Of a DNA stretch of 64,000 nucleotides, positions 21,693 through 26,512 are shown piece after piece. The stretch lies in NCBI GenBank assembly GCA_902575815.1, contig CACGTA010000002.1:10845-74844 (forward strand), written 5' to 3'. Position 1 is the stretch's first letter; each line of letters begins with the position of its first letter. The position numbers and the translations under genes were made by a program. The DNA is from an uncultured Alphaproteobacteria bacterium. Its GTDB lineage: Bacteria; Pseudomonadota; Alphaproteobacteria; HIMB59; GCA-002718135. Below the pieces are notes generated by a model. It did no database searches, was not told the DNA's origin, and saw only the letters and a program-made list of their open reading frames with translations.

Positions 21693-23041
21693 TATTTTGT
21701 ATCTTTAATATCAAATGTTTTAACTTCAAGTTTTTTATATTCATCTTCATTTAATTTTATAACATTTGTTTTAGATTTGGAAATAATTGAATCTATTACT
21801 TTTTGCTCAATAAGAGGTGCTCGAATTGTATCAAGTGATGATGGATTTTTTTCAAAATATTCCATAATCTGCTTTTCTTGGCCAGGGTATTGCCTAGTAT
21901 ACTCCATTATTCCTTTGTTAATTTCTTCTTCAGATACAACAACTTTTTCTTCTGAAGCAATATGTTGCATTAATAAACCAAGTTTAACTCTTCTTTCTGA
22001 AATTTTTTTATATCTTTTTTTAAGATCTTCCTCTTTTAATAGCTTATCATCCTCATCTAAACTATCATCTTTTTTAGCTTGCTCTAAACGATTCCATATT
22101 TGATTAAAATCATCTTCCAGCACTCCATCCGGTAATTCAAATTTGTAATTATTGTCTAAAAGATCCATCAATTCTTTTTTTTCTATTTGTTTTATGCCTT
22201 GCTCATATTGAGTTTTGATATTACTAACTAAGAAATTTCTGAGATCTTTTTCTGTTTTGAAACCATTCTTATCTAAAAGTTCTTTTGTAAGTTCAAATTT
22301 AATTTTTTCTTCAATTGAAATTATTTCAAAATTAAAAGGTGTTATTTTAAATTTATCATCTTTAAGAATTTTAGATAAGTTGATTTTTAATTCAATTTTT
22401 TCTCCAGCTTTTACTTTTCTTTCTATCAACTCTTTGTTTAAACCTGGAAGTATTCCATCATCAAAACCCAGATCAATAGGAAAATTTTTTTGAGATTTTA
22501 AATATTCTGGAAGGTCTTCTTGTGAAGACTCAAAATTTACAATTACCTTATCAGTATTTTTAACCTGTCGAGAACTTTCAATTTTTTTAAAGTTTTTTTG
22601 TGAGGCAATAAAATTTTTAAACTGTTCTTCCTCGGCTTTTTTACCTAATTTAATTTCATACTTATTAATTTTAAAATCTTTAAAATCTTTAAGTTTAATT
22701 TCAGGTTTTAAATCAAATTTTAAGGTTATAGTTATAGGCTTATTTTTTTCATAGTGACTAAGCTCAACCTTAGGAGATCTAAAAAGAGAAAACTTTTTTT
22801 CATCAATTAATTTTTTTGTATTTGTATCTATTACTTTTTGAATTACTTCATTTAAAACATTATCTTCATATTTTTTTTTAACAATATTGAGTGGAGCTTT
22901 ACCTTTTCTAAAACCAGGAATATTTACAGTAGGCAGTATTTGATTTATTTTTTTTTCTACTTCAATATCAATTTCCTCATAAGGGATTTCTAATGAGTAT
23001 TCCTTATAAAGTTTTTTTGACTTTAATTCTTTTGTATTCAT
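21692..23041 (-). CDS. tig: Trigger factor
   Basis: Ribosome-binding motif [10 protein letters not shown]; tig-clpP-clpX synteny. Confidence 0.95.
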
Positions 23042-23057
23042 ATTTTATCAAACATAA

Positions 23058-23142
23058 TGGTAGGCCGGAAAGGACTTGAACCTTCACACCTCGCGGCACT
23101 AGAACCTAAATCTAGCGTGTCTACCAATTCCACCACCGGCCC
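23058..23142 (-). tRNA. tRNA-Leu(TAG)
   Basis: 85-nt class II tRNA; CTAGA-TT-TAG-GT-TCTAG anticodon arm, long variable arm, CCA end. Confidence 0.96.
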
Positions 23143-23209
23143 TATTATTATTAAGCCTTTTATGTACAATAAATTAAAAAACAATAGAGAAAATTAACTA
23201 ATTACTAAT

Positions 23210-23287
23210 TGGGGCGAACGATGGGATTCGAACCCACGGCATCAGGCACCACAAGCCTGCGCTCTAACCAACTGAGCTACGTTCGCC
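23210..23287 (-). tRNA. tRNA-His(GTG) with encoded G-1 and C73
   Basis: G-GCGAACG...CAGGC-TT-GTG-GT-GCCTG...CGTTCGC-C-CCA, 78 nt including G-1. Confidence 0.96.
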
Positions 23288-23339
23288 ATATAACTTAATT
23301 AAAAGTTTAATTTTTATATTAAATCGCTATATCAAAAAT

Positions 23340-24497
23340 ATGGAAGTTTCAAAAAGAATATTTAATTTAGAAACAGAAACAGCTTTCTCTATTCTTGCTA
23401 AAGCTAATAATCTTGCTGCTAAAGGTAGAGATATTATTAATTTAGGAATAGGACAACCCGATTTTCCTACGCCATTAAATATTCAGGAAGCTGCTATTAA
23501 AGCAATTAAAGATGGTCATCATGGTTATACTCCATCAAATGGGATACCTGAATTACGAGAATCAATTTCAGAACTAGTATTTAAAAAATATAAATCAAAT
23601 ATTAATCCAGAAAATGTTTTAATAACTCCAGGAGGTAAGCCTGTAATTTTTATTTCAGCATTATTGTTAGGCAATGAAGATAGAGAAATTATTTTTCCTG
23701 ATCCAGGTTTTCCAATTTATAGATCTATGATTAAATACAGTGGTGCAAAAGCTGTACCATTAAAGCTTTCTGAAAAAGATAACTTCGAAATTAATACTGA
23801 ACAATTAAAAGAATTAATTTCTGATAAAACAAGTTTGATAATTATAAATAATCCAAACAATCCAACAGGATCGTATATGAATAAGAAAAAAATTACTGAT
23901 CTTGTTAATTTATTAGAGCAGTACCCAAAGGTCTCCATTTTAAGTGATGAAATTTATAGTAATATTATTTTTAATAACGAACAAATGCCATCATTACTAG
24001 AATACGAAAGCATAAAAGATAGATTAATAGTTCTTGAAGGATGGAGCAAAACATATTGTATGACTGGATGGAGATTAGGCTGGAGTATATGGCCAGAAAA
24101 TTTAATTGAACATGCTAATAAAATATGTGTTAATTACAATTCCTGCGCTACCTCAATTTCGCAATATGCAGGTTTAGAAGCAATAAAAGGTTCTCAAAAA
24201 GAAATAACAAAAATTGTTAGTGAATTTCAAAAAAGAAAAGAGTACGTTTTTAATGAATTGAATAAATTAGAAAAAATTTCTTGTTTTGAACCAGGTGGTG
24301 CTTTTTATGCATTTCCCAATATTTCAAAAACTGGATTGAGCGGAAATAAATTTTCAGAAATCGCACTTGAAGAGAAAGGTGTTGCATTAGTTCCTGGCTC
24401 TAGCTTTGGAGATAATGCTGTAGAATTTGTAAGAATAAGTTTTGCTAATTCCCTAGAAAACATTAAAGAAGCAATTAATAGGTTATCTACGATATGA
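23340..24497 (+). CDS. Class I/II PLP-dependent aminotransferase (aspartate aminotransferase-like)
   Basis: NLGIGQPDF, NNPNNPTG, SDEIY, PLP lysine in SKTYCMTGWRLG. Confidence 0.92.
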   Translation: MEVSKRIFNLETETAFSILAKANNLAAKGRDIINLGIGQPDFPTPLNIQEAAIKAIKDGHHGYTPSNGIPELRESISELVFKKYKSNINPENVLITPGGKPVIFISALLLGNEDREIIFPDPGFPIYRSMIKYSGAKAVPLKLSEKDNFEINTEQLKELISDKTSLIIINNPNNPTGSYMNKKKITDLVNLLEQYPKVSILSDEIYSNIIFNNEQMPSLLEYESIKDRLIVLEGWSKTYCMTGWRLGWSIWPENLIEHANKICVNYNSCATSISQYAGLEAIKGSQKEITKIVSEFQKRKEYVFNELNKLEKISCFEPGGAFYAFPNISKTGLSGNKFSEIALEEKGVALVPGSSFGDNAVEFVRISFANSLENIKEAINRLSTI

Positions 24498-24835
24498 AAA
24501 AAATAGAAGCAATCATTAAACCATTTAAACTTTCTCAAGTTAAAGAAGCTCTCCATGAACTTGGAATATCCGGAATGACATTAGTAGATGTAAAAGGTTT
24601 CGGTAGACAAAGAGGATCAACTGGTGGAATTGATCCTAATGATGGGTATGATGATGAATTTTTAGCAAAAATGAAACTTGAAGTGATCGTCGAAGACAAT
24701 CAAGTAAATGATGTTATTGAATCAATAAAAACTAGCGCTTATTCAGGAAAAATCGGCGATGGCAAGATTTTTGTATCGAATATTGAGCAGGTAATTAGAA
24801 TAAGGACTGGTGAAAAAGACAGTGATGCTGTCTAA
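24494..24835 (+). CDS. glnB: PII nitrogen regulatory protein with divergent T-loop
   Basis: MKKIEAIIKPFKL, GFGRQ, SGKIGDGKIF, RIRTGE; upstream of glnA. Confidence 0.93.
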   Translation: MKKIEAIIKPFKLSQVKEALHELGISGMTLVDVKGFGRQRGSTGGIDPNDGYDDEFLAKMKLEVIVEDNQVNDVIESIKTSAYSGKIGDGKIFVSNIEQVIRIRTGEKDSDAV

Positions 24836-24876
24836 TTTTTCTTTACTTTTGTATAAAACCTAGTAATTAAACTACA

Positions 24877-24926
24877 ATCGTTCAACTCTTTTAGAGTCGG
24901 AAGTAGGCATTGTGCCGAAGGAACGC
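24877..24926 (+). promoter_or_regulatory. Glutamine-I (glnA motif) riboswitch aptamer 1
   Basis: ATCGTTCA-[ACTCT TTT AGAGT]-CGGAAGTA-[GGCA TTG TGCC]-GAAGGAACGC matches the glnA-motif three-way junction; in the glnA 5' region. Confidence 0.88.
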
Positions 24927-24941
24927 ATGCAAAAGTTATAA

Positions 24942-24994
24942 ATCGTTCAACCTATTATCATAGGTCGGAAGTAAGTCAAAAGCTGAAGGAACGC
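24942..24994 (+). promoter_or_regulatory. Glutamine-I (glnA motif) riboswitch aptamer 2
   Basis: ATCGTTCA-[ACCTAT TATC ATAGGT]-CGGAAGTA-[AGT CAAAA GCT]-GAAGGAACGC; core identical to aptamer 1, different but still paired P2/P3. Confidence 0.86.
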
Positions 24995-25081
24995 GCATCA
25001 AAAGCAGATTTCATAACTAGAGCATGATTTAACCGGGTAACGCTGGATAGCATACCCTTTTGTTGAAGTAAGGAGATAGAT

Positions 25082-26512
25082 ATGAAATTAAAAAGCTCGA
25101 CTCCAAAAGATTTAATGTCTGAAATTAAAGATATGGACATTAAAATGGTTGATATGCGCTTTACTGATATACCAGGAACAACTCAACATTTTACAATACC
25201 AATTAAATTTTTAGACGAAGATATATTTTCTGATGGACTTGGTTTTGATGGATCTTCAGTAAGAGGTTTCCAAGAAATTCAAGACAGTGATATGATTGTT
25301 TTGCCTGATGCAACGACTGCATACATTGATCCATTTTTTTCAGAAAAAACTCTAGCATTACATTGTAATATTAAGGATCCTGTAACTTTGGTTGATTATA
25401 GTCGTGACCCAAGAAATATTGCCAAAAAAGCTGAGGAATATTTGAAATCATCTGGTATTGGCGATACAGCATTTTTTGGACCAGAAGCAGAATTTTTTGT
25501 ATTTAACAATGTTCAGTTTGATTCTGGATCAAACTTTGCATTTCATGAAGTTGATTCTGTCGAAGGTACTTGGAATAGTGGCGCTGATGAAAATCCAAAC
25601 TTAGGTCATAAACCTAGACATAAAGAAGGTTATTTTCCTTTACCACCAGTTGATACACTTCAAGATGTAAGAACTGAAATGGTAATGACAATGCAAGACA
25701 TTGGTCTTACTGTTGAAGCACATCACCATGAAGTTGCAACAGGTGGACAGTGTGAAATTGATTTAGAATTTTCACCACTGTTAAAGATGGCCGATGATAT
25801 GATGAAATATAAGTACGTTGTAAAAAATGTTGCTAGACAACATGGAATGACTGCTACATTTATGCCTAAACCTTTATTTGAAGATAATGGTTCAGGAATG
25901 CACGTCCATCAAAGTGTTTGGAAAGACGGTGACACATTAATGTATAAAGAAGGTAACTATGCTAACCTAAGTGATTTAGCTCTAAACTATATTGGAGGTA
26001 TTCTTAAACATGCACCTGCTCTATTAGCTTTTTGTGCTCCAACTACTAACTCTTATAAAAGATTGGTACCAGGCTTTGAGGCTCCGGTAAACATTGTTTA
26101 CTCTCAAAGAAATAGAACTGCATCTGTTAGAATTCCTGCTTATTCTCAAAGCCCTAAAGCAAAAAGAATGGAATTTAGATGTCCAGATCCAAGTGCAAAT
26201 CCATACTTAGCATTCTCAGCAATGTTAATGGCAGGATTAGATGGAATTAAAAATAAAATTAATCCTGGTGATCCAACAGATATAAATCTCTATGCTGCTA
26301 GCGATGAAGTTTTGTCTAAAATTCAATCTACGCCTGGATCTTTAGCTGAATCTCTTGAAGCTCTTGAGAAAGATCATGCATTTTTATTAGAAGGTGATGT
26401 ATTCACCAAAGATGTAATTGAAACTTATATTAGCTATAAAAAAGAAAGTGAGGTTGACCCTATTAATATTAGACCTCATCCACACGAGTTTAAATTATAC
26501 TACGACGTGTAG
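25082..26512 (+). CDS. glnA: Glutamine synthetase type I (GSI-beta)
   Basis: [39 protein letters not shown], adenylylation-site Tyr in INLY; AAGGAG RBS. Confidence 0.97.

Follow-up and report, generated by a model that had tools for sequence, protein, structure and literature searches.

A tandem glutamine-I riboswitch ahead of glnA in marine Alphaproteobacteria as a likely translational OFF switch

A locus on contig CACGTA010000002.1 of an uncultured alphaproteobacterium raises two questions: what glutamine does to a glnA gene whose leader carries two glutamine-I aptamers, and in which organisms such leaders reside. In the available text of Klähn 2018 (PMC6212724), both the host and the effect of marine glnA-linked copies of this riboswitch are given as unknown. 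We analyzed a 64,000-nucleotide stretch of the contig (the window) together with related leaders and genomes. Our preferred reading is that the tandem glutamine-I riboswitch of the glnA leader likely acts on translation as an OFF switch in which the two aptamers are predicted to work through a single common helix.

Aptamers, gene order, and transcription of the leader

A tandem glutamine riboswitch had been predicted between glnB and glnA, and the covariance-model search proposed along with it, run as an Rfam cmscan of the whole window, confirmed this. Two RF01739 matches, both spanning model positions 1-53 of 53 and both above the gathering score of 35 bits, were located at 24877-24929 (64.3 bits, E 6e-12) and 24942-24997 (61.7 bits, E 3e-11); the other six of the eight hits were tRNAs. 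The aptamer cores (24877-24926 and 24942-24994, + strand, as are all features described below) lie 15 nt apart, as predicted. Both copies have the three-way junction P1-P2-P3, with 5/5 P1 pairs each and the conserved CGGAAGUA and GAAGGAACGC, including the equivalents of G23 (within CGGAAGUA) and C60 (24926 in aptamer 1). The RF01739 alignments likewise bear out the pairings proposed earlier for P2 and P3 and the closure of P2 by A-U, and core aptamer positions are invariant among 33 aligned leaders. A C1-G59 pair is part of the RF01739 structure, and C1 is reported both to form this pair and to line the ligand pocket. By sequence and structure, the pair is a member of the glutamine-I family, in which the tandem arrangement is already known, and L-glutamine binding is predicted. 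These are the sole copies in the window's genome (58% complete). Aptamer 2 ends 87 nt 5' of glnA on the same strand, placing the pair in the leader of a nitrogen-metabolism gene. The predicted interval, 24877-24994, covers both aptamers but leaves the expression platform (24995-25089) outside.

Upstream, glnB (24494..24835; P-II, PF00543) overlaps at its start with a PLP-dependent aminotransferase gene (23340..24497), which is context and outside the switch. The downstream gene, glnA (25082..26512), encodes a type I glutamine synthetase (TIGR00653, 667 bits). The glnA leader likely has its own promoter just 5' of aptamer 1. The candidate sigma70-type promoter at 24842..24869 has a -35 TTTACT, a 16-nt spacing, and a -10 TAATTA, from which we infer an RNA start near 24875-24877. 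Of 38 distinct glnA upstream regions, 34 have a -35-like hexamer exactly 35 nt 5' of aptamer 1, a pattern picked after inspection of those regions; a consensus promoter scan made no call at 24842..24869. A terminator-like hairpin in the final glnB codons (24817..24833), which likely parts glnB from glnA transcription, is present in 37 of the 42 glnA leaders with sufficient upstream DNA, and at one locus (L089), whose GlnA falls inside the clade of the window's family (support 100/100), the same leader occurs with no glnB ahead of it. The leader is also present in metatranscriptome contigs of several studies, and one RNA-library contig spans 24876-25113. Contig depth, which cannot fix levels, is ~5-26 across glnB and climbs to 100-480 across the leader in four runs, and contigs start at 24876 in X4 and X8, ends that cannot fix a transcription start. 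Low-depth contigs span the junction between glnB and aptamer 1, and aptamer contigs of other organisms join at the same place as the 24876 starts. The depth rise and the 24876 ends are a weak hint only. The original prediction saw no sigma54 element, in agreement with a + strand scan of 23001-25090 that found no -24/-12 site upstream of glnA; the only GG-N10-GC in this interval has three mismatches and lies inside the aminotransferase gene.

Two predicted alternative helices of the switch strand

We collected 94 distinct tandem leaders (43 glnA, 25 ATP-grasp, and 26 ammonium transporter [amt] leaders), all chosen by C.UGC at the linker start. They have a common order: aptamer 1, linker, aptamer 2, a switch strand with a GCAUG end, a variable hairpin, and the ribosome site. 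In the window, the linker strand CAUGC-AAA-AGUUAUAAAUC (24926..24944) begins at C60 of the first aptamer, ends at C1 of the second, and is the 5' arm of a predicted glutamine-free helix. The switch strand, GAUUUCAUAACU-AGA-GCAUG (25007..25026), has two alternative partners, the linker (24926-24944 with 25007-25026) or the start-codon region (25007-25019 with 25077-25089), and the resulting helices are mutually exclusive. The target of the switch strand comprises the Shine-Dalgarno (SD) sequence AAGGAG (25070-25075) and the start-codon region (together, 25070..25089). Between them is a spacer hairpin (25028..25067), conserved in shape and not in sequence, that likely places the switch strand beside the AUG; each of the 30 distinct glnA spacers folds into a hairpin, with energies of -7 to -14 kcal/mol.

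Helix pairs were counted by motif anchor; MAFFT offsets the linker by one column between gene classes. The five CAUGC/GCAUG pairs of the first arm are kept in 32/32 distinct linker/switch combinations, which represent all 94 leaders and three gene classes, although the leaders compared are close kin. Pairing along the second arm is kept in 31, 32, 32, 32, 29, and 26 of the 32 combinations, the first four values being the inner pairs, and one-sided changes there preserve pairing (U-A/U-G, 11/21; A-U/G-U). No two-sided covariation of the linker helix was found among the 32 combinations, and in the first arm this is because the arm is almost invariant. In 52 of 58 combinations, the linker helix outperformed those formed by shuffled linkers (p<=0.01). 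Complementarity to the start region differs by class. In glnA leaders, UUUCAUA lies opposite UAUGAAA (containing the AUG) in 3/3 variants, and in amt leaders UUCCAU lies opposite AUGGAG of the SD, with two mismatches in one amt variant. The anti-start helix thus shows a two-sided change between classes (UUUCAU/AUGAAA versus UUCCAU/AUGGAG). Matched-class duplexes had means of -7.4 and -7.5 kcal/mol versus -5.3 and -5.9 kcal/mol when swapped, a cost of ~1.5 to 2 kcal/mol. Taken alone, the anti-start core carries a modest signal, reaching p<=0.05 against 300 genome starts in 9/22 glnA, 4/21 amt, and 0/15 ATP-grasp combinations.

When the free state was folded without constraints, misfolding of the modeled aptamers made the results noisy; unconstrained folding recovered the anti-start helix and not the aptamers, with a fold no stabler than shuffles (z -0.05). 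Constrained states were used instead. In the bound state, P1 is complete and C60 unavailable; in the free state, the aptamer helices are the same, but C60 is available and the terminal pair of P1 is open. These constraints were set with the hypothesis in mind, which makes the outcome a designed prediction. At 25°C, the modeled linker helix of the window has P 0.77 in the free state, and opening the start region is predicted to cost 1.4 kcal/mol in the free state, 3.9 with aptamer 1 bound, 3.4 with aptamer 2 bound, and 6.8 with both bound. This order is unchanged in the model at 15 and 37°C, and free and bound folds are predicted to lie within ~1 kcal/mol. As controls, 1 of 200 foreign gene starts attained the window's shift of +5.4, and 80 shuffled linkers left the start closed in both states. 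All 31 distinct glnA leaders were predicted to shift toward closed (median, +4.9), lending computational support to the OFF direction presumed in the original prediction. Modeled shifts to closed were also obtained for 15/20 ATP-grasp leaders and 7/25 amt leaders, the latter including 3 opposite shifts and the remainder flat. For cyanobacterial-type singlets, the model shifted 37/38 to open, the direction tested for gifB.

These alternative helices suggest how the leader may work. Without glutamine, the linker (24926-24944) would pair with the switch strand (25007-25026) in a helix that encloses aptamer 2 and grips one base of each aptamer, C60 of the first and C1 of the second, at opposite ends; with this helix formed, the SD and AUG would stay accessible and glutamine synthetase would be made. 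Glutamine binding would pull C60 of aptamer 1 into a G23-C60 pair, as has been shown for cyanobacterial aptamers, and in aptamer 2 it would close P1. Each of these changes is predicted to free the switch strand, which would then pair with UAG-A-UAUGAAAUU over the start codon (25077-25089), blocking initiation.

Glutamine might instead turn glnA off at the level of transcription, with the hairpin at 25035-25057 plus UUUUGUUG acting as an intrinsic terminator or the folded leader leading to Rho-dependent termination or decay. Six U in 8 nt directly follow the hairpin of the window, and a hairpin plus U-run is present in several other glnA leaders (L087, L119, and L196), but there is no U-run after the hairpin in L084, L089, L114, and L195, and a terminator scan makes no call at 25035-25057. 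The hairpin core is also formed in both modeled states (P 0.98 and 1.0), and the class-specific complementarity of the switch strand to the AUG or SD points to initiation, such that we regard transcriptional control as unlikely. Marginally less probable still is a linker helix that serves as a fixed scaffold orienting the aptamers, with one aptamer or another local change controlling the start, again in the OFF direction. The near invariance of the linker helix would fit a scaffold, as would the fact that many amt leaders retain it when modeled as bound (median P 0.72). All 31 glnA leaders, however, lose the linker helix in the bound model (P<=0.01). It also occupies C60, which the bound aptamer requires for G23-C60, and it cannot coexist with the anti-start helix.

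It is improbable, in our view, that the switch is ON or that the aptamers no longer control glnA. The sole glutamine-I switch tested in vivo, that of gifB, is ON, and the effect on glnA is listed as unknown in the available sections of Klähn 2018 (PMC6212724). Against either case stands the invariance of the core aptamer positions, and an ON switch is at odds both with the model sign for glnA leaders, opposite to that of cyanobacterial singlets, and with targets that are nitrogen-scavenging genes. C60 of aptamer 1 is predicted to pair with the GCAUG at 25022-25026 and not, as C60 and the bases after it do in a gifB-type ON platform, with the SD; the corresponding pairing in cyanobacterial-type singlets is GCCUC/GAGGCG.

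Host family, regulon, and protein sensors

The order to which the window's genome belongs splits into two families, the window's own (f1) and its sister (f2). RF01739 riboswitches were found in 76/78 f1 genomes and 0/71 f2 genomes, and the two f1 genomes without the riboswitch are also without this glnA in their assemblies. The alphaproteobacterial host of the original prediction is supported, and f1 is likely AEGEAN-169/HIMB59 subclade II. The available text of Getz 2023 (PMC10308909) describes two AEGEAN-169 subclades, with HIMB59 in subclade I, and that of Smith 2013 (PMC3870248) gives strain HIMB59 a glnB-glnA pair, a second P-II, and glnD, a set matched by one f2 genome. Among 150 other alphaproteobacterial families (one genome each), there was one riboswitch hit. 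A GTDB pattern scan yielded at least 120 loci, with copies also in cyanobacteria, SAR86, and other gammaproteobacteria.

The original prediction overlooked both the shared expression platform and a regulon. Genomes of f1 carry up to eight aptamers, which form four tandem pairs in two genomes that are >90% complete. In the fetched loci, tandem pairs precede glnA, ammonium transporter genes (two of which can adjoin), and a circularly permuted ATP-grasp gene, with family names derived from Pfam on related singlet-bearing loci and from sequence likeness. In ATP-grasp leaders including L004-L009, a short upstream open reading frame begins at the AUG that the switch strand reaches and ends at or near the ATP-grasp start, which suggests control via translational coupling. 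The same nested leader is found 5' of amt in L034, L060, and L147, from 1.9- to 2.2-Mb genomes with rpoN, two of them titled SAR116 and Rhodobacterales; this suggests that a riboswitch-amt cassette moves between marine lineages. Another tandem design was observed in L048, L052, L072, L133, L134, L139, L150, and L151, which are gammaproteobacterial-titled or untitled. Here, the P3 loop of aptamer 2 contains UAAUG, complementary to the linker CAUUA, C60 of the same aptamer begins a hairpin over the SD, and small unnamed genes lie downstream; this design looks like an ON switch. In SAR86-titled and related loci (L041, L058, L083, L090, L092, and L097), single, double, and triple aptamers precede a gene for either a type II-like glutamine synthetase or an outer-membrane protein, and the conserved trailer is a different one (CCGUUAAAC...GAGUUUAAC).

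The original prediction proposed that the riboswitch had replaced NtrC/sigma54 control. This was not borne out, and we reject it: no rpoN scored above the cut-off in any of 59 f1 and f2 genomes, including 24 riboswitch-free f2 genomes, in which the gene is equally missing. The TIGR01818 cut-off is a weak test for NtrC, passed by 1 of 14 control genomes. The best NtrC-model hits scored 177 to 216 bits, and both of the two inspected were without GAFTGA. In f1, the best hits are proteins of 444 to 449 amino acids, encoded after what we take, from sequence likeness, to be a sensor-kinase-like gene and before a presumed TrkA-like gene. Because GAFTGA is missing from the two inspected proteins and because of these neighbors, we assign the best f1 hits, on sequence grounds, as NtrX-like. 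An NtrC/sigma54-controlled glnB-glnA locus is thus not indicated by the site scan of the window, by rpoN in the 59 genomes, or by GAFTGA in the two inspected proteins. Replacement of Ntr control is not general either, with rpoN kept in 4/5 other riboswitch-bearing genomes; glnD is present in 4/5 of them, and we reject a general mutual exclusion of riboswitch and GlnD, both of which coexist in these four genomes outside the order.

The presence of glnD, which the original prediction proposed checking, separates the families: it was found in 0/78 f1 versus 60/71 f2 genomes, and glnE was found in 0/78 versus 57/71, although f1 genomes are incomplete (58% for the window's own), so that a gene without a match may still be present, and the difference between f1 and f2 counts as a single evolutionary event among kin. 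Sigma54 control was lost from f1 and f2 alike; what sets them apart is GlnD/GlnE. Since rpoN is missing from both families and glnD and glnE were found only in f2, the RNA likely stands in for GlnD/GlnE and not for NtrC/sigma54. It would supply in f1 the glutamine feedback that GlnD and GlnE give in f2. In accord with this difference, the P-II T-loop is rewritten and variable in f1 (RGSTGGIDPNDGYDDEFL in the window versus KGHTELYRGAEYVVDFL in f2, where it is canonical), and the adenylylation motif of glutamine synthetase is diverged in f1 (INLYAASDE in the window) and canonical in f2. The f1 T-loop retains a Tyr before DDEF despite no glnD having been found in f1. At L188-L190 (f2), a glnE-like gene is convergent to glnA, and the glnB-glnA spacer is ~40 nt.

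GlnA itself is likely of foreign origin, judging from protein comparisons. The window's GlnA is 46 to 58% identical to typical copies, which are present in 117 of 151 alphaproteobacterial genomes, and scores better against PDB 4xyc, 2bvc, and 3ng0 than against 2gls. GlnA of f1 and that of f2 both fall outside the usual alphaproteobacterial GSI clade (midpoint-rooted tree; 36 rows, 4 skipped). In this tree, f1 GlnA groups with a copy from a Microvirga plasmid and two further atypical ones, not with f2 (90/88, moderate). Joint transfer of glnA and riboswitch found no support, no donor being identified in the 36 rows, and Atlas taxa are a lead only.

More tentatively, at slightly under an even chance, f1 may have swapped the GlnD/GlnE sensor for an RNA regulon in which the double aptamers act as an inverter, either site flipping the C60/C1-capturing helix onto the start codon. 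If true, this inverter would be the first glutamine-I OFF switch and would represent a distinct coupling of two weak-binding aptamers. The locus names a likely host lineage for marine glnA riboswitches, a question left by Klähn 2018, and for the second question, what glutamine does to glnA, it offers a 230-nt construct with base-level testable predictions. The clean contrast of f1, a family of abundant ocean alphaproteobacteria, with f2, RNA versus protein sensor, bears on the control of nitrogen assimilation in streamlined ocean bacteria.

Comparison with known systems

The aptamer class, tandem copies, and marine glnA-linked copies are already known. In the available text of Weinberg 2010 (PMC2864571), glnA RNAs of cyanobacteria and marine metagenomes, some tandem, precede P-II, glutamine synthetase, GOGAT, and amt genes; that of Sherlock 2022 (PMC9481103) counts 157 doublets and 4 triplets, and RF01739 appears in the accessible parts of reports on SAR86 metagenome-assembled genomes (PMC12379486) and marine phages (PMC9004378). 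Within the literature covered, with subscription papers mostly outside it, none assigns a glutamine-I riboswitch to AEGEAN-169/HIMB59 and none tests a glutamine-I OFF platform; Ames and Breaker 2011 may describe parts of the tandem leader. The features that appear to be variant are the nested platform common to both aptamers, with its predicted inversion of the output, and the f1-wide swap with GlnD/GlnE. The marine metagenomic glnA RNAs are very probably of the same kind as the window's, some perhaps from the f1 lineage, and are described without host, direction, or expression platform in the available text of these papers (PMC2864571 and PMC9481103). Sherlock 2022 (PMC9481103, available text) lists them as pseudo-cooperative tandems, whereas a single nested platform is proposed for the window.

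The Synechocystis gifB leader has the same aptamer and the same proposed trigger, the departure of C60 from a P1-adjacent helix for G23-C60 (PMC6212724, available text). As given there, citing Ren 2015, glutamine binding forms G23-C60 and melts a short helix beside P1, and Klähn 2018 proposes that this melting frees the gifB ribosome site. Unlike the window's leader, however, gifB has one aptamer, its C60 pairs directly with the ribosome site, and it is an ON switch. In the window, a single platform serves two aptamers, C60 forms the beginning of an anti-sequester helix, and glutamine is predicted to turn the synthetase itself OFF. A parallel in layout is the tandem glycine riboswitch, which also has two homologous aptamers and one expression platform. 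Its aptamers couple by tertiary contacts and aptamer 2 drives the platform, whereas coupling in the window is predicted to run through a single competing helix in which a key base from each aptamer is captured. With the GlnD-PII-GlnE control of HIMB59 and other alphaproteobacteria, as described in the available text of PMC3870248, the f1 locus shares the glnB-glnA order and glutamine feedback on glutamine synthetase and Amt, but f1 has glnB with no glnD or glnE found, whereas f2 has both and no riboswitch.
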